Shown: positions 1,088 through 53,690 of the stretch, piece by piece | Numbering within the stretch: position 1 is the stretch's first letter | How the letters are laid out: every line of letters starts with the position of its first letter | NCBI GenBank assembly: GCA_016875195.1 | Contig: VGRY01000006.1 | Span: 27,541-91,540 of the forward strand | DNA from: Deltaproteobacteria bacterium | GTDB lineage: Bacteria; Desulfobacterota; BSN033; UBA1163 | Direction of reading: 5' to 3' | DNA length: 64,000 nucleotides | Made by a program: the position numbers and the translations under genes | The notes under the pieces: generated by a model | The model's database searches: none | What the model was told of the DNA's origin: nothing | Seen by the model: the letters and a program-made list of their open reading frames with translations, nothing else

Positions 1088-1792
1088 TTGCTCTACAAAA
1101 AGACTTCCTACAAACAGCAGATCAAAGCTCTGACCGAAATCAGTAAAGCCATCTCATCGGATAGGTACTTAGACGATATTTTAAAACTGATCGTAACAGT
1201 CACGGCCAATGTGATGGACTCAAAGATATGTTCTCTCTGGCTTCTCGATGAGGAAGAGAAGGCTCTCAAAATCCGTGCCACACAGACCATGAGCGAGGAA
1301 TATCTTAAGGAAAGGAGCCTGAAATTAGGCGAGGGTGTGGTGGGTTATGTGGCCCAGACCAAAAAACCCCTGGCCATTCTCGATGTCTTGAAGGAGCCAC
1401 GGTATAAGGAAAAAGAGCTGGCCCAGAAGGAGAGCCTGGTATCCATGATCAGCGTTCCGCTGGCCGTAAAAGATAAAGTGATCGGAGTGATCAACTGTTA
1501 TACTTCTTACTCCCATCAATTTACCGAGGCTGAGAAGGAGATGCTCACCGCTGTTGCCAGTCAGGCTGCCATCTGTATTGAGAGCGCAGAGCTGATGGTA
1601 AAAACCAAGGTCATCCAGGAAGAACTGGAGATCCGAAAACTGGTGGAGAGAGCCAAGGGGATTTTAATGAAACGGCATGGGCTGAACGAAGAAGAAGCGT
1701 TCAAACGAATCCGGAAAGCCAGCATGGACAGCCGGAAGACCATGCGCGACATTGCCGAAGCAATCCTCCTCACCGATAAAATGGGAGGATAG
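1088..1792 (+). CDS. One-component GAF-ANTAR RNA-binding antitermination regulator
   Basis: N-terminal GAF domain (residues ~14-170). C-terminal ANTAR signature EELEIRKLVERAKGILMKRHGLNEEEAFKRIRKASMDSRKTMRDIAEAIL. No receiver domain. Confidence 0.88.
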   Translation: MLYKKTSYKQQIKALTEISKAISSDRYLDDILKLIVTVTANVMDSKICSLWLLDEEEKALKIRATQTMSEEYLKERSLKLGEGVVGYVAQTKKPLAILDVLKEPRYKEKELAQKESLVSMISVPLAVKDKVIGVINCYTSYSHQFTEAEKEMLTAVASQAAICIESAELMVKTKVIQEELEIRKLVERAKGILMKRHGLNEEEAFKRIRKASMDSRKTMRDIAEAILLTDKMGG

Positions 1793-11992: not shown

Positions 11993-12021
11993 TTGACAAA
12001 AAATATTCTTTATTGTAAAAA
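11993..12021 (+). promoter_or_regulatory. sigma70-type promoter TTGACA-N17-TAAAAA
   Basis: TTGACA 11993-11998 and TAAAAA 12016-12021. The predicted TSS at ~12028 is 3 nt before hairpin P1. Confidence 0.5.
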
Positions 12022-15617: not shown

Positions 15618-17354
15618 ATGCGGATATTGAGAATTGGGCTCTGTCAGATCAATACGACGGTAGGGGATATCGAAGGCAATACCAAAAAGATCCTCGACTA
15701 TATGGCCAGAGGAAAGCGGATGGGCGCAGACCTTCTGGTTTTTCCGGAGATGGCTGTCACAGGATACCCCCCTGAGGATCTCCTCTTCATGCCGAAGTTT
15801 ATTGAGGCTAACCTGAAAGCGATCAAAAAAATTGCCAGAGCCACTTCCTCGATCACAGCCATTGTCGGATTCGTCCATAAAGAGGGGGATATCTTTAACT
15901 CTGCAGCCCTCCTTCACCATGGCAAATTGATCGATGTCTATTCCAAGGTCTATCTTCCCAACTACGGGGTCTTTGATGAGTTACGATATTTCCACCCCGG
16001 CAAAGAAAATTTCATTTTCACTCTTCAAACCATCCCTATCGGCATCAGCATCTGTGAAGACCTATGGTATCCCGGAGATCCGGTCCGCACTCAAGCCCTC
16101 TACGGGGGAGCCGAACTGATGGTCAATATCTCCTCATCGCCTTATCATTCGGGAAAGACGACATCACGTGAAAAACTGATCTCCACCAGGGCCTCTGACA
16201 ATGTGGCCATCGTTGCCTATTGCAATCTGGTGGGAGGCCAGGATGAATTGGTCTTTGATGGCGGAAGTATGGTTTTTGATCAAAAGGGGGAGTTGGTTGT
16301 TCGGGGGAAACAATTTGAAGAGGATTTGGTCCTGGCGGATCTCGATCTGGAAGCGGTCTTTCGGATGAGGCTCCATGACCCCCGAATCAGAAGAGAGAAA
16401 CTGACCGAGGAAGAAAAATGGATAAAAAAAATTGACCTTCCACATCGAGCCCGTTCAGTAGGAAAAAAGCCGCCTATTCCGAAAAGAGATTCAAGGCCAT
16501 TGGATCACCTCGCTGAAATCTATTCTGCCCTGGTGCTTGGAACAGGAGACTATATCAAAAAAAATGGATTCCAGAAGGTCTTAATTGGCCTCAGTGGCGG
16601 AATTGACTCTGCTTTAACTGCGGCCATCGCAGTGGATGCATTGGGAAAGAAATCCGTGGTGGGAGTGGCAATGCCATCCCAGTATTCTTCGAAAGCCTCT
16701 CTGGAAGACGCAAAACTTCTGGCAAAAAACCTCAGCATTCAATTCCTCACCATCCCCATTGAAGAGGTCTTTGAAGCCTATCTTAAAACGCTCGCCTCAG
16801 CGTTTAAAAAACTAAAACCGGATGCAGCCGAAGAGAATATCCAAGCCCGGATTCGTGGAAATATCCTGATGGCCCTCTCCAATAAGTTTGGCTGGCTCGT
16901 CTTGACCACCGGGAATAAGAGCGAGATGAGCGTAGGCTACTGCACCCTTTACGGAGATATGGCCGGAGGGTATGCGGTTTTAAAGGACGTCCCAAAGACT
17001 CTGGTCTATGAATTAACCGAATATAAAAACAGAAAAGAGGGAAAGGCCATCATCCACCAAAATGTTATCGATAAACCTCCTTCCGCAGAATTGAGGCCAA
17101 ATCAGAAGGATGAGGATTCCCTCCCGCCCTACTCTATTCTTGACCCCATTCTTCAAGCTTATGTGGAAGAAGATAAGGGAGTGGATGAGATTACCAAGAT
17201 GGGGTTTAAAGAGAAAATGATCAAAGAAGTGATTCAGATGGTTGACCGGAATGAATATAAAAGGAGACAGAGCTCACCGGGAGTCAAGATCACCCACCGC
17301 GCCCTCGGAAAAGACCGAAGACTTCCCGTCACCAACAAGTATCGAAATTTTTAG
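15618..17354 (+). CDS. nadE: Glutamine-dependent NAD+ synthetase (CN-hydrolase domain + NAD synthase domain)
   Basis: N-terminal nitrilase-like domain (MRILRIGLCQINTTVGD..FPEMAVTGY..ICEDLW). C-terminal GLSGGIDSA PP-loop and the TGNKSE motif. Confidence 0.92.
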   Translation: MRILRIGLCQINTTVGDIEGNTKKILDYMARGKRMGADLLVFPEMAVTGYPPEDLLFMPKFIEANLKAIKKIARATSSITAIVGFVHKEGDIFNSAALLHHGKLIDVYSKVYLPNYGVFDELRYFHPGKENFIFTLQTIPIGISICEDLWYPGDPVRTQALYGGAELMVNISSSPYHSGKTTSREKLISTRASDNVAIVAYCNLVGGQDELVFDGGSMVFDQKGELVVRGKQFEEDLVLADLDLEAVFRMRLHDPRIRREKLTEEEKWIKKIDLPHRARSVGKKPPIPKRDSRPLDHLAEIYSALVLGTGDYIKKNGFQKVLIGLSGGIDSALTAAIAVDALGKKSVVGVAMPSQYSSKASLEDAKLLAKNLSIQFLTIPIEEVFEAYLKTLASAFKKLKPDAAEENIQARIRGNILMALSNKFGWLVLTTGNKSEMSVGYCTLYGDMAGGYAVLKDVPKTLVYELTEYKNRKEGKAIIHQNVIDKPPSAELRPNQKDEDSLPPYSILDPILQAYVEEDKGVDEITKMGFKEKMIKEVIQMVDRNEYKRRQSSPGVKITHRALGKDRRLPVTNKYRNF

Positions 17355-40085: not shown

Positions 40086-42266
40086 TTACTCTGGAAGCTT
40101 CACTTCAGGACGGCATATTCTGAGTTTCTGCATCCTTGCTCTCAGGGTGCTTGGGTGGAGGTCCAGAATTTCCGCGGCTCCCTTTAGCCCATTGATGCGC
40201 CACCGGGTTTCAGAAAGAGTCTTAAGAATCTGGTCTCGTTCCGTCTCCGCAAGGGTCCTCAGCGTGGATGGTAATAGGGGAGAGGTATTTTCCAGTTTAT
40301 CCGATAGCTTTAATAGCGGCCCGGAGGACAGGATCACAGCCCGCTCGATGACATTCTCAAGTTCCCGGATGTTTCCGGGCCACGAGTAATCCTGGAGTGC
40401 CTTCATCGTTTCCTTCTGAATTGATGTGATCTGTTTGCCCAGTCCTTTGGAAAGTCTCTCGATGAAGGTCTGAACCAGCAGCGGGATGTCCTCTTTCCGC
40501 TGCCTGAGCGGGGGCACCGTAATGGGAAAGGTGTTGAGCCGATAGTACAGGTCTTGTCGAAAACGACCCTTTCGAACCTCTTCTTCAAGGTTTCGATTGG
40601 TCGTTGCTATAATTCGCACGTCCACTCTGACCGTATGGGAGGAACCCAGACGTTCAAACGCATTGTGCTGGATCACCCGGAGCAACTTGGCCTGGACTTC
40701 CAGTGGTAATTCTCCTATCTCGTCGAGGCAAAGGGTCGAACCATTGGCCACCTCGAACCGCCCCACCTGCCGGGTATCAGCTCCGGTAAATGCCCCCTTC
40801 TCCCGGCCGAACAGCTCGCTTTCAATTAAATTGGCCGGCAGGGCTGCGCAGTTTACGGTGACCAGCGGCCGGTCCTTACGAGGGCTCATCTGATGGATGG
40901 CGGAAGCGATCAACTCCTTTCCCGTACCGGTCTCGCCGAGGATGAGGACCGTCGTGTTCGTCGGAGCGACCTGCTCCGCCCGATGAAGGACGTATTTGAA
41001 GGCATTGCTTTGACCGATGATATGGCCGAACTGGTATTTCAACTTAACTTCTTGCCGGAAGTAAAGATTCTCAGTCTCCAGTTGGTCTTTTAATGTCTTG
41101 ATCTCAGAAAGAGCATTGCGCAGGGATTCCTCCACGCTCTTATGTTCGGTGATGTCGTGGAGAATCTCCATCTTCATAACATCCCCGCGTTCGTTGAGGA
41201 TCGGCGTGCTAAAAGCATCATAGGTCTTGCCGGTTTGTGGCGAATCCCATTCCCACTGGACAGACTTTCCGGCAAATACCTCTTGAATCTTGCACCAGGT
41301 ACAGGGTGTCGGGAGATCATGAAAATAGGCATGGCACTTGCGTCCATTGACCGGGCCATGTTCCTTTTCGATGACGGGGTTAATGTACTGTATGTCACGA
41401 TTTTGATTGGTGATATAGACGCCGTCATTCAGGGATTCCAGGATGCCCTTCAGTTTATTACGTTCCAGTTGCAGGATCTTTTCGGTCTGCCTGCTTCGCT
41501 CGATCTCCTTCTTCAGTTGCTCGTTGGCTCTCTGGAGTTCGACAGTGCGCTCATGGCCCCGCTGCTCCAGGTATTCGAGCAAAGATTCCCGTTCCTCTTC
41601 CATCCTCTTGTTGGTGAGGATGATCGCCATGATTTTACCGAATCCGGAAGCCATGTGTGCGTCGTCTTCGGTGAATCCCCCTGGTTTGTTTGCAAAGCCA
41701 AGCAAACCTATCCCCTCCCCATTGACAATCATTGGAGCAAACAGAACATTAAAAAGCGGCAAAGGTCCTTCCGGCATCAATCTCATACGACCGCCATTCG
41801 AGAAATCATTCTGAAAAACGGCCCGCCTCGTATGGAACACCGTGTCACACAACACCCGAATAGGCATGGCAAGGTTGCAATCGACCGGGTAAGGCAATCC
41901 CTCCGAGTCCAGAAAAAAGACTCCATTTTCTGTGCCCTTCTTATTCAAAAGAGCAACGTATCCTATTTTGGCTCCAAGCAGGTTCTTGCAAGAATCGAAT
42001 AGGGTTTGGGTTGCCTCTTTAAAATCGTTTTGCACCAAGACAGCCTTCGCCCTGCTCATCAACCCCGATATCTCCTCTTGAGACCTCTGAGATTGTCCAA
42101 GAGTCTTAGTAAGAGTTTGCTCTGCTCTGATACGCTGGGCAGCTCTCCCGAGCTGAATGGCATACGCTTTTATCACGTGTGGCTGCCTCTCTAGAAAGGG
42201 ACTCTCATTGTCTATTGCCTTTTCGCCCATATCATCAACCTCAATCGACTTACAATGATTCAGCAA
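40086..42266 (-). CDS. sigma54-dependent transcriptional activator (GAF + PAS + AAA+ + Fis HTH)
   Basis: GETGTGKE Walker A, GAFTGA sigma54-contact loop, C-terminal [22 protein letters not shown]. Confidence 0.9.
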
Positions 42267-43880: not shown

Positions 43881-43896
43881 TGGCACAAGGATTGCT
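43881..43896 (+). promoter_or_regulatory. sigma54 promoter TGGCAC-N5-TTGCT
   Basis: tggcacaaggattgct is a perfect consensus. 11 nt (ctctatactgc, no SD) lie between it and ATG 43908. Confidence 0.75.
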
Positions 43897-44625: not shown

Positions 44626-48879
<4,254 letters not shown>

Positions 48880-48898: not shown

Positions 48899-49087
48899 TT
48901 AGGCCACTTTTTTCTTCTTAAAAACCACAAGAGGTTTTGGCTGGCGACAAACAATTTGTTCCGAAAAGGGTTTCTGCATTTTTTTCAGGTGTTGGTAAAA
49001 TAATTCAGGATCTCGCTTAGCCTCGTTCTCAATCTGTTTTCGTATTCGACGCACTTCCTTTACGATTGGATCAGTCTTCATCTTCAA
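48899..49087 (-). CDS. Small basic hypothetical protein, overlaps the upstream PIN-like gene by 17 nt
   Basis: 62-aa ORF; no family recognised. Confidence 0.4.
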   Translation of the reverse strand: MKMKTDPIVKEVRRIRKQIENEAKRDPELFYQHLKKMQKPFSEQIVCRQPKPLVVFKKKKVA

Positions 49088-49574
49088 CCTCCATAAGTTC
49101 CTCGGGAGTACATACGATGGGTGTGCTAATCCCTTGAACTGTATTTATAGTCTGGACAACCGTCCGAACCCGAGGGTTGAGGATATGACCAAAATTCCAC
49201 GTTACTAAGAAGTCCATGCCGTGAAAAGCTGCCAGGGCAAAGTGATAGGTATCCCCTCTGGCTTTTTCAGGGATCTGTATAGCTCCAAAATAGGTGTCAG
49301 CCAATCGCCGCACCCCATTCGTAATTTCCAGTATCGGGAACTTAGCTATCTTCTCGATGCGCAATCTCGCCGCAGCTTCATCCCCTCGTGATATTTCTTC
49401 GATCACAAGAGATGAAATGAATGGTTCAAATAGTGGTAACCAATTCTCCCACCATTCTGTTGTTACCTGTTGGTGTGCAGCCACAAGCAGATCTCGACTC
49501 GGCCTTGAGGTTAAATAGCTTAACACAGTTGTCTCAATATAAACAGTTTGCTTGGGTATATTCTTCCTTTTCAT
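49071..49574 (-). CDS. PIN-like nuclease domain protein (VapC-like)
   Basis: VYIETTVLSYL..DTYHFALAAFHGMDFLVTWNFGHI resembles the PIN acidic-residue pattern. Confidence 0.45.
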   Translation of the reverse strand: MKRKNIPKQTVYIETTVLSYLTSRPSRDLLVAAHQQVTTEWWENWLPLFEPFISSLVIEEISRGDEAAARLRIEKIAKFPILEITNGVRRLADTYFGAIQIPEKARGDTYHFALAAFHGMDFLVTWNFGHILNPRVRTVVQTINTVQGISTPIVCTPEELMEVEDED

Positions 49575-49893
49575 TTGCTTATTGGCTTTATGCTTCTGTC
49601 AGTTGTACCCATCAACGCATTGTAATATACACCATTTAAAAAATATTTTGAAGTAAATATTTCAGAAAGAAATTTACAGATCCGAATTTCCATTAGATAG
49701 TAGAAATTTATAAGCAGATTACCCTCTCAACGGCTGAGTCAGGTTTCTTCTTTAGGTTCGTAGACGTCCAACGTTAAATCATTAGGGTTATTTTTTTAGA
49801 TAATCAATACCAAAATGGAATTTCCAAAAGATTCCCTGTTTATAACAAATGGATTTATCCAATCCTCCGAAATTCTTTTCCGAAATTCTTTTC

Positions 49894-49922
49894 TTGACTT
49901 AAATAGGAATCTATATTAGAAA
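49894..49922 (+). promoter_or_regulatory. sigma70-type promoter TTGACT-N17-TAGAAA
   Basis: TTGACT 49894-49899 and TAGAAA 49917-49922. The predicted TSS at ~49929 abuts P1. Preceded by a perfect 13-nt tandem duplication at 49867-49892. Confidence 0.5.
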
Positions 49923-49929
49923 TATTAAA

Positions 49930-49983
49930 AATACGAAGCTGTATTGGGGACGAGGGCGTCAAGGTTTATTGACGCCTTTTTTT
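49930..49983 (+). promoter_or_regulatory. ANTAR-type antiterminator/terminator module (kinase operon leader)
   Basis: P1 AATAC-GAAGCT-GTATT at 49930-49945. P2 GAC-GAGGGC-GTC at 49949-49960. Terminator GGCGTCAA-ggttta-TTGACGCC at 49955-49976 plus T7. Confidence 0.75.
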
Positions 49984-50201
49984 ATCCGCCTACGCAGAAG
50001 ACCACCCCGCTCAGCGGGATGGATGAATGCGCATAATTGCCAAAGTAAGTTATGGGTTTATAAATTACTGCTTCGGCGGATTTCGCTGAAGGCGGATAAC
50101 CCTCCGAAGCCTTGGCGTAGGAGGGTATCTTTATGGAGATACTACGAGCTTTGCCCGTGGGGCTCCATCGGTAGCCACTGGCCCAGCGGGTCAACAGTAG
50201 A

Positions 50202-51929
50202 ATGGGATCAATTGGATTGAATAAAAAAAATTCAATTCCCGATGCGAAAGAGATCAATGCTTTGCTTGAGATCAGTAAAGCCATCGCTTCGGGTCTCTAT
50301 CTCGAGGATGTCCTTCGTCTGATCGTGACGGTGACCGCTAATGTGATGGACTCGAAGATCTGTTCTCTCTGGATCCTCGATGAAAGAGATCAGAGGTTGA
50401 AATTAAAAGCCACCCAGTCCATCAGCGAAGAATACCTCAGGGAGAGAAGCCTGGCTCTTGGAGAGGGAGTGGTCGGTCATGTCGCCCTTCATAATAAACC
50501 CATGGCCATTGCCAATGTCCTTCAAGACCCTCTCTATAAGGAGAAAGAGTTAGCAAAGAGGGAAGGATTGGTCTCCATGCTCAGCGTGCCAATGTGCATC
50601 AAGGAGAAGGTGATCGGGGTGATCAACTGTTATTCGTCCTCCCCTCGAACCTTTTCGAAGTCGGAAGAGGAGATGCTCTCAACCGTGGCCAATCAGGCTG
50701 CCATCTGCATCGAAAACTCCGGCCTCATGGAAACCCTCGATATCGATGAAATCCTGAGGCTGGTGCTGGAAGGGGTGATCAAGAACATCGGATTTGATCG
50801 GGCACGACTCTATCTGATCAACGAAAAGAGAAATGTCCTTGAATGCAAGATGGCTGTGGGAGTGGATGTGGAGAAGATCAAAGGGATTGAACTCCCTCTT
50901 ACCCTCGAAAGCAGTGTGGTATCGAGGTCTGTGATTGAAAAGAAACCCTATTTCATTCCCGATGCCAGGAATGACCAAAGGGTCAACCCTGTTTTAAAAG
51001 AGAAATTCAATCTTCACTCCCTCGTGGTCATTCCTCTCTTCACAAAAGAAAAAGTTCTCGGGGTGATTGCCGCAGACCATATCGAACCCGGAAGAAGGCT
51101 GACACAGGAAACGCTCGATTCGGTGATGACTTTTGCTCAACAGGCAGGATTGGCCATTCAAAATGCCTCCATGTATCAGGAGCTCAAGAATTTCAGCCAG
51201 CAGATGGAGGAGAAGATTGAAAAGACAACTGCGGACCTCAGAAAAACAGAGGCTCAGTTGATTCGGTCTGAAAAACTGGCAGCCCTGGGTCAACTGGCCG
51301 CAGGCATTGCCCATGAAATCCGAAATCCTCTGACCAGCATCAACATCCTCATTCATTCGATGAGGGAGAAATTGCCCTCTGAACATTCACAGCAGGAAGA
51401 CCTGAAAGTGATCGAAGAGGAAATCTATCGCATGGATGAGATCGTCAGCCAGTTTCTTCGATTCGCAAAACCCGCTTCTCCATTCCTTGAAAAAACAGAT
51501 CCCCTCTCTATTTTTGAGGAGATCCTTCAATTGCTCAGGCCTCAGATAGAAAGGCAACGCATCATGGTTGAAAAGGAGTTCCAAGCCCTTCCTATGATCC
51601 TGATCGACCGTGAGCAGATGAAACAGGCCATGCTCAATCTTCTGCTCAATGCCATCCAGGCCATGCCGAAAGGAGGTCATCTGATCCTTTCAGGTCGGAA
51701 TTCCGAAGATGGCCAATGGGTTTGTCTATCCGTCCAGGACTCCGGAATAGGAATCTCTTCAGAAGACATGGATAAACTGTTCGACCCCTTCTTCTCCACA
51801 AAAGAGGGGGGAATGGGCCTTGGCCTCTCCATCACCCATCGCATCATTGACCAGCATCATGGAAAGATTGAGGTGAATAGCATCCCTGAAAAGGGAACGC
51901 TTTTTACAGTTTGGTTACCTATTTCATGA
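50202..51929 (+). CDS. Sensor histidine kinase: GAF-GAF-HisKA-HATPase_c
   Basis: First GAF is 106/157 identical to the GAF of the ANTAR protein (hand alignment). H-box AHEIRNPLTSI. N/G boxes LLLNAIQAM and DSGIGI..GGMGLGL. Confidence 0.9.
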   Translation: MGSIGLNKKNSIPDAKEINALLEISKAIASGLYLEDVLRLIVTVTANVMDSKICSLWILDERDQRLKLKATQSISEEYLRERSLALGEGVVGHVALHNKPMAIANVLQDPLYKEKELAKREGLVSMLSVPMCIKEKVIGVINCYSSSPRTFSKSEEEMLSTVANQAAICIENSGLMETLDIDEILRLVLEGVIKNIGFDRARLYLINEKRNVLECKMAVGVDVEKIKGIELPLTLESSVVSRSVIEKKPYFIPDARNDQRVNPVLKEKFNLHSLVVIPLFTKEKVLGVIAADHIEPGRRLTQETLDSVMTFAQQAGLAIQNASMYQELKNFSQQMEEKIEKTTADLRKTEAQLIRSEKLAALGQLAAGIAHEIRNPLTSINILIHSMREKLPSEHSQQEDLKVIEEEIYRMDEIVSQFLRFAKPASPFLEKTDPLSIFEEILQLLRPQIERQRIMVEKEFQALPMILIDREQMKQAMLNLLLNAIQAMPKGGHLILSGRNSEDGQWVCLSVQDSGIGISSEDMDKLFDPFFSTKEGGMGLGLSITHRIIDQHHGKIEVNSIPEKGTLFTVWLPIS

Positions 51930-51974
51930 TGACCGATGAACCATCATCTGTTCATCGTATTGAAAGGGGCAAAC

Positions 51975-53414
51975 ATGCAGACGATCCTCATTGTTGACGA
52001 TGATAAATCGATCCGCTACTCTCTGAAAAGGATGCTGGAAGATCATTTTTCCATCCTCACTGCCCAGAATGGAGAAGAAGCCCTATCGCGCATGAAAGAA
52101 TCTTCCCCTGATCTGATCATCATGGATATCAAGATGCCTGGCCGGAACGGAATCGATGTGTTGAAGGAGATGAAGTTCCTTGACCCGAAGTCCCTCATCA
52201 TTCTGATGACCGCCTATGGCACTACAGAGACGGCGATCGAGGCGATGAAATTTGGGGCTTTCGATTACATCCTCAAACCTTTCCCGATTCCACAGATGAA
52301 AGAGTTGGTGCAAAAGGCGATCGCATTGCGGAAACTGATGAAGGAAGAAGTCTCCTATGCATCCGAACCGGATCAACAAAAAGAGGAAGAACAGATCATC
52401 GGTTCCGCTCCCAAGATGCAGGAGATCTATAAGGTGATCGGACAGGTGGCTCCCAGCGATGTCACTGTCCTCCTCAGAGGCGAGAGTGGAACGGGAAAGG
52501 AATTAGTGGCACGTGCAATCTATCACTACAGCCTCCGTTCGAGCTACCCGTTTCTTCCGGTCAATTGTGCTGCCATCCCGGATACCCTTCTCGAAAGTGA
52601 ACTCTTCGGCCATGAAAAAGGAGCTTTTACCGGTGCCATCTCCAGGCGCATCGGAAAACTGGAACAATGTCAGGGAGGGACCATTTTTCTGGATGAAATC
52701 GGTGACATGTCTCTCTCCACTCAGGCCAAACTCCTCAGAATCCTTCAGGAAAAGACTTTTGAAAGGCTTGGGGGAAGGGAAACGCTCAGGGTGGATATTC
52801 GATTTATCGTGGCAACGAATAAAGATCTTGAAGAGGCGATGGTCAGGGGGGAATTTCGTGAAGACCTCTATTACCGGCTCAATGTGGTCTCTATCAAGAT
52901 TCCTCCTTTAAGGGAAAGAAAAGAGGATATCCCGAACCTCACCTCTTACTTCTTAAAAAAATTCAATCGTGATTTAAAGCGGAAGGTCGCCGGGATCACT
53001 CCATCGGCAATGGGAAAAATCACCTCCTACGGATGGCCAGGAAATGTGAGACAATTGGAAAATGTTCTGAAAAGAGCCGTGCTCCTCTGCCAGGGAGAAT
53101 GGATTCTTGATGATCAACTCCTTCTTGATGTAGAAGAGAGACGAGAGGCTGCAGAGGTTCTGAAAGGAAAGACATTCGAGGGCCTACTCGATTCCCTCTT
53201 TATGGAACTCACGGAAACCTCCCCGGACCGGGAAGGTCTGGATATGGTTTCAGCCATTGAGAAAGGGTTGATCCTTCGTGCCCTTCAAAAGACGAACGGA
53301 AACCAGGTTCAGGCAGCTTCGCTTCTCGGAATCAATCGGGGCACGCTCCGGAGCAAAATGGAGCGGTATCACATTAGAAAAGAGGTGCTGGTTTCCGAAG
53401 AGGATAATGAATAA
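51975..53414 (+). CDS. NtrC-family sigma54-dependent response regulator (REC-AAA+-Fis HTH)
   Basis: MQTILIVDDD..DLIIMDIKMPG, GESGTGKE, GAFTGA, and C-terminal AASLLGINRGTLRSKM. ATG 51975 with SD aagggg is preferred over 51936. Confidence 0.9.
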   Translation: MQTILIVDDDKSIRYSLKRMLEDHFSILTAQNGEEALSRMKESSPDLIIMDIKMPGRNGIDVLKEMKFLDPKSLIILMTAYGTTETAIEAMKFGAFDYILKPFPIPQMKELVQKAIALRKLMKEEVSYASEPDQQKEEEQIIGSAPKMQEIYKVIGQVAPSDVTVLLRGESGTGKELVARAIYHYSLRSSYPFLPVNCAAIPDTLLESELFGHEKGAFTGAISRRIGKLEQCQGGTIFLDEIGDMSLSTQAKLLRILQEKTFERLGGRETLRVDIRFIVATNKDLEEAMVRGEFREDLYYRLNVVSIKIPPLRERKEDIPNLTSYFLKKFNRDLKRKVAGITPSAMGKITSYGWPGNVRQLENVLKRAVLLCQGEWILDDQLLLDVEERREAAEVLKGKTFEGLLDSLFMELTETSPDREGLDMVSAIEKGLILRALQKTNGNQVQAASLLGINRGTLRSKMERYHIRKEVLVSEEDNE

Positions 53415-53589
53415 ATTTCTCTGTTTCAAAAACAGATGATCACCTTTTTTAACCAACCTGATTAATTTTCATCATTTCCACCTAACCCTCTATCTTTGTC
53501 CAGGAGTTTCATCTCTTTCTTACTAAAATAATCCTATGTGATTACAAAAGGTTACAACATATTAACTTGCCTGCGTAGATTACGAACAA

Positions 53590-53605
53590 TGGCATATTAT
53601 TTGCT
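53590..53605 (+). promoter_or_regulatory. sigma54 promoter TGGCAT-N5-TTGCT upstream of glnA
   Basis: tggcatattatttgct with canonical spacing. The predicted TSS at ~53616 is 4 nt before P1. Confidence 0.75.
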
Positions 53606-53619
53606 ATTAATATTTCGTT

Positions 53620-53684
53620 AATACGATGGGGTATTAGAATGACAAGGGCGTCTTTCTTAAAACGGAGAGACGCCTTTTTATTTT
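53620..53684 (+). promoter_or_regulatory. ANTAR-type antiterminator/terminator module (glnA leader)
   Basis: P1 AATAC-GATGGG-GTATT at 53620-53635. P2 GAC-AAGGGC-GTC at 53641-53652. Terminator GGCGTCTTTC-ttaaaacg-GAGAGACGCC at 53647-53674 plus TTTTTATTTT. Confidence 0.75.
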
Positions 53685-53690
53685 AATAAA

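Follow-up and report, generated by a model that had tools for sequence, protein, structure and literature searches.

Does a terminator switch of the ANTAR type control the synthesis of an NtrC-type regulator pair, and through it the sigma-54-dependent expression of glnA? The question is raised by a short leader in a 64,000-nt stretch of DNA (the whole of which we call the window) from an uncultured lake-water bacterium of the Thermodesulfobacteriota ('Syntrophaceae'-type MAGs), whose genome assembly spans 4.08 Mb and is 87% complete. The window holds a nitrogen island in which genes for a GATase, Amt, PII and GlnD are followed by the leader module, a GAF-GAF-HisKA-HATPase kinase, an NtrC-type activator, glnA and a giant glutamate synthase. 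A first-pass annotation had described the module as two hairpins (P1 and P2), an 8-bp terminator and a U7 tract behind a promoter, had treated it as a further copy of one module, and had proposed that it gates the kinase/NtrC operon in a feed-forward cascade from the RNA level to sigma-54 transcription.

Architecture and folding of the kinase leader

The coordinates of the leader and of the genes connected with it are collected in Table 1. The predicted transcription start lies at about 49929, at the foot of P1, with the promoter ending 7 nt from the hairpin. The consensus promoter scan did not call the TAGAAA -10 element, which has no T at position 6; the arrangement TTGAC(A/T)-N17-TA(A/G)AA(A/G), placed 7–10 nt before P1, is also found at two further module copies in the window and in the kinase leader of the related genome L048. 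P1 and P2 are joined by a GGG linker. The P2 sequence, GACGAGGGCGTC, occurs unchanged in two relatives (L053:2522 and L073:3250), and P2 is the putative antiterminator half-site.

Table 1. Positions of the kinase-leader elements and associated genes in the window
Feature	Position	Strand	Basis or remark
GAF-ANTAR protein	1088–1792	+	Pfam ANTAR 1e-22, GAF 1e-21
VapC/PIN-family toxin gene, 167-aa ORF	49071–49574	-	
Sigma-70-type promoter, TTGACT-N17-TAGAAA	49894–49922	+	Sequence reading; layout recurs near 11995 and 14036
-35 element TTGACT	49894–49899	+	17-nt spacer to the -10 element
-10 element TAGAAA	49917–49922	+	
P1 hairpin, AATAC/GAAGCT/GTATT, 5 bp, hexaloop GAAGCU (G1, G4)	49930–49945	+	Sequence, folding, pattern count
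P2 hairpin, GAC/GAGGGC/GTC, 3 bp, hexaloop GAGGGC (G1, G4)	49949–49960	+	Sequence
Intrinsic terminator, 8-bp perfect stem, 6-nt loop, U7	49955–49983	+	Folding and terminator scan
Terminator 5' arm GGCGTCAA	49955–49962	+	Followed by loop GGTTTA
Terminator 3' arm TTGACGCC	49969–49976	+	
T7 tract	49977–49983	+	
Dispersed repeat, ~190 nt	49984–50170 (left edge ~49975/49984)	+	93–94% identical copy at C16:21613-21808
Promoter-like site in the repeat, TTGCCA-N18-TAAATT	50037–50066		Conserved in the C16 copy
GAF-GAF-HisKA-HATPase histidine kinase	50202–51929	+	Pfam
NtrC-type response regulator: REC, sigma-54 AAA+ domain, Fis-type HTH	51936–53414	+	Pfam
glnA leader: sigma-54 promoter TGGCATATTATTTGCT (53590–53605), then P1/P2/terminator module (53618–53690)	53590–53690	+	Motif and covariance model

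The terminator has the hallmarks of a Rho-independent signal, namely a G+C-rich stem (five G-C pairs among the eight, extendable to 11 pairs), a short loop and a U-tract of at least five residues right after the stem, and it was the only one detected in a terminator scan of positions 49000–50600. The nearest plus-strand gene on its 5' side ends at 48879 and the closer gene lies on the opposite strand, so this is a leader terminator and not a gene-end terminator. It shares the segment GGCGUC (49955–49960) with P2: the terminator 5' arm takes in the final three bases of the P2 loop together with the P2 3' arm, and the two structures are therefore mutually exclusive.

The minimum-energy fold of the leader combines P1 with the terminator (z = -3.2; none of 200 shuffled sequences folds as well). 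At -15.7 kcal/mol, this state is about 11 kcal/mol more stable than the combination of P1 with P2 (-4.3 kcal/mol), which indicates that termination is the default outcome. P2 alone contributes just -2.1 kcal/mol and would therefore persist only if held in place, which calls for a protein.

The module belongs to a family linked to nitrogen genes

With 0.03 exact matches to AATAC-N6-GTATT expected in the window, four are found; every one is the P1 of a full module, and the modules in question stand before a GltS-like gene, gdh, the kinase operon and glnA. Elsewhere in the genome the same pattern is present at six further loci, none of which (0/6) carries a module. A loose hand-written descriptor returned 97 matches genome-wide, mostly false, and was replaced by two covariance models built on 36 module copies collected from relatives: R1 from all copies, and R2 from the 30 copies of other genomes, with none from the host genome. 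When R2 was run on the 4.08-Mb genome, the kinase-leader module was the top match (45.6 bits, E 6.7e-8). Eight sites scored 22–46 bits and the rest of the genome at most 17 bits; R1 gave similar results.

These eight modules form the leaders of five transcription units, all of them in nitrogen or amino-acid metabolism. Three copies are stacked before the GltS-like gene and two precede gdh, while the kinase operon, glnA and a unit on contig C4 have one each, the last preceding an asd-like gene and a gene for an amino-acid-binding protein. The anatomy given in the first-pass annotation was recovered by sequence reading, folding and the terminator scan, and its description of the kinase-leader element as a further copy of one module is borne out by the score under the independent model R2: the element belongs to the same family as those before the other nitrogen genes of the window.

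Within the family, loop position 4 is G in all 35 copies (35/35) in both loops, and the G4 of P1 was not imposed by the search pattern. Loop position 1 is always a purine, with A and G in a ratio of 26 to 9 in P1 and 27 to 8 in P2 among the same 35 copies. Compensatory changes at the outer pair of P1 were observed in five copies. Modules with G1 include those before gdh and GltS-like genes, and since G1 is found in 9/35 P1 and 8/35 P2 loops, the ANTAR clade evidently accepts it. G1 in both loops is confined to three modules, two of which are kinase leaders (that of the window and that of L021). This amounts to two of the four kinase leaders versus one of the 31 other copies (hypergeometric P of about 0.03, with related copies and small numbers), and the loop sequences thus hint that the site of the regulator operon is a weaker one. 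No curated Rfam family covers the short motif: an Rfam search gave no match at gathering thresholds across the window, and around the module only chance-level matches at E ≤ 10.

Kinase leaders in related genomes

A strict pattern applied upstream of kinase orthologues identified L048 only, and a looser pattern together with the covariance models added L019 and L021. These three genomes belong to the same family; in each, the module immediately precedes the kinase orthologue, at normal spacing from its start codon, and a GAF-ANTAR homologue is encoded. The L048 leader comprises TTGACT-N17-TAAAAA, the module, the terminator and about 60 nt to the ATG. The L019 cassette is followed by about 30 nt to the start codon, and the L021 cassette by 17 nt with a good Shine-Dalgarno (SD) sequence. 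The alignment of the L048 leader with that of the window begins on the upstream side of the -35 element, runs through the terminator and extends beyond the functional motifs; the two are thus orthologous and not convergent look-alikes. The gene order of L021 is GlnD-module-HK-NtrC, as in the window, and that of L048 is Amt-PII-module-HK-NtrC-module-GlnA-GltS.

The module is missing from about 25 other kinase orthologues, those of all same-genus relatives examined among them. In most relatives the kinase-NtrC pair lies downstream of gdh or a GltS-like gene, after a gene-end terminator and a conserved sigma-70-like promoter, TTTGCAAAAAGACAGGTTTCATATATGAT. This promoter, which serves the kinase in same-genus relatives, is absent from the window leader. 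As some 25 relatives run the kinase from a plain promoter, the module is dispensable as wiring for this gene. In a kinase tree from which L048 was left out owing to a frame offset, the module-bearing genes are scattered and not monophyletic, requiring at least three changes, and the window kinase falls within an otherwise module-less genus. This distribution indicates that the wiring was gained or lost repeatedly.

Same-genus genomes have neither the module nor glnA downstream of glnD. A DNA-level comparison of positions 49071–49990 with 25 relatives revealed no conservation except for other module copies and a short repeat, and the module neighbourhood is not syntenic within the genus. The VapC/PIN-family toxin gene on the 5' side of the module has thousands of homologues across phyla and is missing from the corresponding position in L021. 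None of the public RNA runs searched contains the kinase operon; one sediment metatranscriptome contains 8% of the glnA words, which probably come from a relative.

A dispersed repeat lies between the terminator and the kinase gene

The distance from the U-tract to the ATG at 50202 is 218 nt and consists mostly of an inserted repeat. Its second genomic copy, on contig C16, sits in an unrelated intergenic region. Depth over the repeat in three lake metagenomes is 4–5 times that of the flanks, where several alternative left flanks also occur; the genome itself reaches about 70x in the lake water column. Relatives carry full or partial copies in a patchy pattern; the kinase leaders of L048, L019 and L021 do not contain it. 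The repeat folds as a tight multi-hairpin and has no T-run terminator on the kinase strand. An ORF within it (49969–50220) was considered as a gene and rejected, as it belongs to this non-coding dispersed repeat.

The promoter-like site within the repeat could support ANTAR-independent transcription of the kinase. It matches at 9/12 positions, and the scan found three such sites against 2.6 expected in shuffled background. In the interval between the module and the kinase, sequence reading and scans revealed no other good promoter and no further terminator, and a search for a sigma-54 promoter between the terminator and the kinase found none. The kinase start codon is either the ATG at 50202 or a TTG at 50217, with a clear SD sequence before neither. 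The insertion and the lack of a clear SD raise the possibility that the switch on the kinase operon is bypassed or is by now an orphan. The module itself has remained intact despite insertions on either side, the toxin gene on one and the repeat on the other. The kinase and NtrC genes are 7 nt apart and are presumably co-transcribed.

The ANTAR protein and the sigma-54 arm

A search of the assembly with PF03861 returned one ANTAR gene (82.8 bits), whose GAF-ANTAR product has no receiver domain and is the presumed reader of all eight modules. We know of no GAF-ANTAR protein that has been characterised. The gene has a TTGACA-type, sigma-70-like promoter, and a search near position 1088 for a TGGC-N7-TTGC sigma-54 site found none. 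The N-terminal GAF domain of the kinase is about 65% identical to the GAF domain of the ANTAR protein and is its paralogue.

The next gene after NtrC, at a gap of 386 nt, is glnA, and its leader joins a sigma-54 promoter to a complete module. This design is kept in L048, together with a conserved upstream block, TTTTAAnCAACCTGnnTAATTTTCATCA, which in the window lies at about 53444–53474 and fits an enhancer-binding-protein site. The genome also encodes rpoN. With a sigma-54 promoter and a module at glnA and rpoN present, a feed-forward loop is therefore architecturally possible, in which the neighbouring NtrC, by its adjacency, would be the activator of glnA. A second sigma-54 activator, of the GAF-PAS type, is encoded in the window at 40086–42266.

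Proposed mechanism and alternative explanations

Taken together, these results make it likely that the element is a functional ANTAR-type attenuator that forms the 5' leader of the kinase/NtrC operon and feeds forward to glnA. RNA polymerase would initiate at about 49929 from a constitutive-looking sigma-70 promoter, and by default the nascent RNA would form P1 and the strong terminator, stopping at U7 to release a leader of about 55 nt. On binding its GAF ligand, the sole GAF-ANTAR protein would become active, and its dimer would clamp the P1 and P2 hexaloops, sequestering GGCGUC, the terminator 5' arm. Polymerase could then continue across the spacer of about 190 nt contributed by the repeat and transcribe the kinase and NtrC genes, and no promoter in the repeat would bypass the switch. 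Phosphorylated NtrC with sigma-54 would in turn activate glnA. As the glnA leader has the same module, glnA would need both inputs, giving AND logic in a coherent feed-forward loop. Because the sensor GAF of the kinase is paralogous to that of the ANTAR protein, one metabolite is probably read at both tiers. The regulator acting on RNA thus probably ranks above the one acting on transcription, whereas Geobacter has them the other way round.

A broader reading, which we put forward tentatively, makes the one-component GAF-ANTAR protein, and not the NtrB/C-like pair, the top nitrogen regulator of this lineage, licensing the kinase and NtrC and acting again at glnA, with the G1/G1 loops as a low-affinity, high-threshold site. 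On this reading the paralogous GAF domains would sense one metabolite at both tiers, and the wiring would have been gained or lost several times in the family.

Where the first-pass annotation placed the module before the operon, the upstream location holds, but the two do not abut, given the 218-nt, mostly repeat-derived gap. The most informative computational test of its gating proposal, conservation of position, comes out positive, given the cassettes before the kinase in L048, L019 and L021, the orthology with the L048 leader and the shared gene order; the 25 or so orthologues that have no module, the inserted repeat, the lack of a clear SD and the G1/G1 loops weigh against gating. The proposed link to the sigma-54 branch survives as far as the glnA promoter, its module and rpoN are concerned, while the assignment of NtrC as the activator of glnA is inferential.

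Several alternatives must be set against the attenuator reading. The module might be a stand-alone decoy or orphan, producing an RNA of about 55 nt that titrates the ANTAR protein, in the manner of EutX/Rli55 with EutV, or is a mere leftover, with the kinase transcribed from the promoter-like site in the repeat. The separation of module and kinase by about 190 nt of repeat would suit this explanation, as would the conservation of the promoter-like site in the C16 copy, the possibly sub-optimal G1/G1 loops and the fact that same-genus relatives manage without the module. However, in L048, L019 and L021 the cassette stands right before the kinase start with no insert, which identifies the ancestral role as that of a leader; the repeat contains no terminator, so readthrough RNA would still reach the kinase; and the promoter-like site is no better than those of shuffled background. 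We therefore regard a decoy or orphan as unlikely. A decayed switch, inherited but made unresponsive by its G1 loops or by the insertion, and now a constitutive partial terminator whose only effect is reduced kinase/NtrC expression, appears less probable again. It could appeal to the functional importance of A1 in the EutV system (PMC3369931) and to the insertion of a toxin–antitoxin (TA) gene and a repeat on either side, which mark a region in flux. Decay is nevertheless difficult to reconcile with a module that scores highest in the genome, whose stems, G4 residues and terminator are intact despite both insertions, and whose G1 is shared with other family loops, including those before gdh and GltS-like genes.

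The join between module and kinase could also be an artefact of assembly, created in the MAG through the shared repeat, in which public unitigs break and whose elevated depth and alternative flanks have been described above. This is very improbable: the two genomic copies of the repeat differ by about 7%, with a longest identical core of about 76 nt, shorter than the read length; unitigs of single-copy depth and zero mismatches tile the whole path in three independent samples; L021 and L048 share the gene order with the module and without the repeat; and the promoter is orthologous to that of L048. Finally, the motif is short, and hairpins with a T-run might resemble the module by chance. This explanation is excluded by the E value obtained with the independent model and by the excess of exact P1 matches, all four of which lie before nitrogen genes.

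Comparison with known regulatory systems

Dual hexaloop recognition and ANTAR regulons in nitrogen metabolism have been described (PMC3369931), and the association of ANTAR attenuators with nitrogen genes is well known. Target RNAs have been defined for EutV (eutP/G/S/A), NasR (nasF) and AmiR (amiE) (Ramesh et al. 2012, PMC3369931; structure, PMC8934654). The kinase leader resembles them in having two short adjacent hairpins with 6-nt loops and a short linker, G4 in both loops (here the G residues at 49938 and 49955), a second hairpin overlapping the 5' arm of an intrinsic terminator, and an ANTAR protein in the genome with a nitrogen-metabolism regulon. The canonical site has A1 as well as G4; both matter in E. 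faecalis, where a change of A1 lowers induction (PMC3369931), whereas both loops here have G1. Every other structural feature of the site is present, and we therefore class the element as a clade-specific ANTAR-type variant. It further differs in that the P1 stem, (A)AUAC/GUAU(U), and the P2 stem, GAC...GUC, are near-invariant in the clade, in its presumed reader, a receiver-less GAF-ANTAR protein, and in the genes it would gate, which form a regulator operon and do not encode an enzyme or transporter.

In overall design the circuit resembles the GnfL/GnfM and GnfK/GnfR nitrogen cascade of Geobacter sulfurreducens, in which the ANTAR system is turned on by the EBP GnfM acting at sigma-54 promoters (Ueki and Lovley 2010, PMC2995071). 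Both cases concern a deltaproteobacterial-type lineage that combines a kinase/sigma-54 activator pair with an ANTAR antiterminator on nitrogen genes, and in both, targets pair a sigma-54 promoter with a leader terminator, as at glnA here. The order, however, is inverted: here it is the EBP operon that carries the ANTAR switch, and the ANTAR gene lacks a sigma-54 promoter. GnfR, an ANTAR protein with a phospho-receiver, has a kinase of its own, in contrast to the one-component GAF sensor found here, and the GnfL sensor is a PAS domain, whereas the kinase here has GAF domains paralogous to the sensor of the ANTAR protein.

The nasF leader of Klebsiella oxytoca likewise places EBP and ANTAR layers in series on one nitrogen assimilation operon, as at glnA in this genome. 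There, unlike here, the higher position belongs to NtrC, with nasR itself subject to Ntr control, and to our knowledge Klebsiella has no ANTAR site on ntrBC. The eutS leader and eutVW of E. faecalis, a case of positive autoregulation, also have an ANTAR-gated terminator upstream of two-component regulator genes, but the gated regulators are the ANTAR system itself, while here they are a separate DNA-level regulator pair. The decoy RNAs EutX and Rli55 show that a small terminated RNA can carry ANTAR sites, a role that corresponds here to the decoy alternative alone. For NtrBC-type operons, a search of the literature brought up no described ANTAR site.

The locus thus combines a known mechanism with a new wiring. 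The sole ANTAR/EBP cascade so far dissected, that of Geobacter, has the sigma-54 activator on top, whereas the anatomy here puts the RNA-binding sensor above, and the cassette before the kinase gene recurs in four genomes of one family. If the attenuator reading is correct, RNA-level and sigma-54 layers can be stacked either way round, close relatives with and without the switch offer a natural comparison on why a feed-forward loop is selected, and the system gives a first way into the study of GAF-ANTAR proteins. That the organism is uncultured limits the practical value; all the parts are small enough for reconstitution in vitro or in E. coli.

Relocation of the regulator pair and insertions around it

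The genes for the GAF-GAF-HisKA-HATPase histidine kinase and the NtrC-type response regulator form a pair whose genomic position differs among relatives. Comparison of positions 15618-17354 of the window with L034-L053 showed that most relatives carry gdh or a GltS-like gene followed by the kinase, NtrC, and NadE genes. Here, NadE comes immediately after gdh, and the kinase and NtrC genes are found behind glnD, at a distance of 35 kb. The pair has moved between two nitrogen loci. Features of this region and of related loci are listed in the table.

Features in the window and related copies elsewhere in the genome (C, other contigs of the genome)
Feature	Position	Strand	Description
167-aa ORF	window 49071-49574	minus	VapC/PIN toxin family
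~55-nt element	window 49616-49675		TTGTAATATACACC...TTTCAGGAAG
~55-nt element, other copies	C9:85862, C53:22023, C21:55293, C1:37073, C75:8033, C5:82474		
Dispersed repeat, ~190 nt	window 49975-50170		
Dispersed repeat, second copy	C16:21613-21808	minus	
Eighth module copy	C4:72881-72917, outside the window	minus	GATAC-AACGAT-GTATC ... GAC-AGGGGT-GTT + terminator
Conserved block	window 53444-53474		TTTTAAnCAACCTGnnTAATTTTCATCA; ~120-145 nt 5' of the glnA sigma-54 promoter
Sigma-54 promoter match	window 43881-43896		TGGCACAAGGATTGCT; good match

The ORF between glnD and the kinase leader gave no Pfam match at default settings; it belongs to a very large toxin family, with 2785 homologues, many of them annotated as type II toxin-antitoxin VapC. 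Relatives lack this ORF at the corresponding position, and it is therefore probably a mobile insertion.

Insertion of the ~190-nt structured repeat has separated the leader terminator from the kinase gene; the repeat contains a promoter-like TTGCCA-N18-TAAATT. In lake metagenomes, its depth was 4-5 times that of its flanks, and several other flanks were seen. Partial copies in relatives are modular, spanning repeat positions 1-128, 86-185, and 129-185, and the repeat looks like a REP/MITE-type element.

Among same-genus relatives, the short stretch that separates the sigma-70-like promoter of the kinase gene from the RBS of that gene is an insertion hotspot, with varied inserts upstream of the kinase in L033 (4440-4720), L035 (4330-4700), L031, and L034. 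A duplicated ATATATGAT(G/A)G flanks the L033 insert and resembles a target-site duplication.

The ~55-nt element occurs in at least seven genomic copies, and further copies are found in relatives. An ATG follows within 7-11 nt in at least three of the copies outside the window, as if the element provided a family of small genes with a common promoter/5' UTR; no ORF lies behind the window copy.

Module copies and loop position 1

The eighth copy of the ANTAR-type leader module is preceded by a TTGACA promoter, and ~200 nt downstream lie genes for an aspartate-semialdehyde-dehydrogenase-like protein and a branched-chain amino-acid-binding protein. This copy extends the presumed regulon past ammonium assimilation.

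In only 3 of 35 modules do both hairpins have G as the first loop base, and two of these three are kinase-operon leaders: that of the window (49935 and 49952) and that of the relative L021 (1400-1425). Such loops on a regulator operon may represent a deliberately weaker ANTAR site, or may be coincidence.

Sigma-54 sites

The conserved block upstream of glnA is common to the window and the relative L048, within surroundings that are not conserved. It is a candidate enhancer (NtrC-binding) site. The sigma-54 match just upstream of amt-PII-glnD is not followed by an ANTAR module. It coincides with the start annotated for the GATase ORF, whose true start is probably further downstream.
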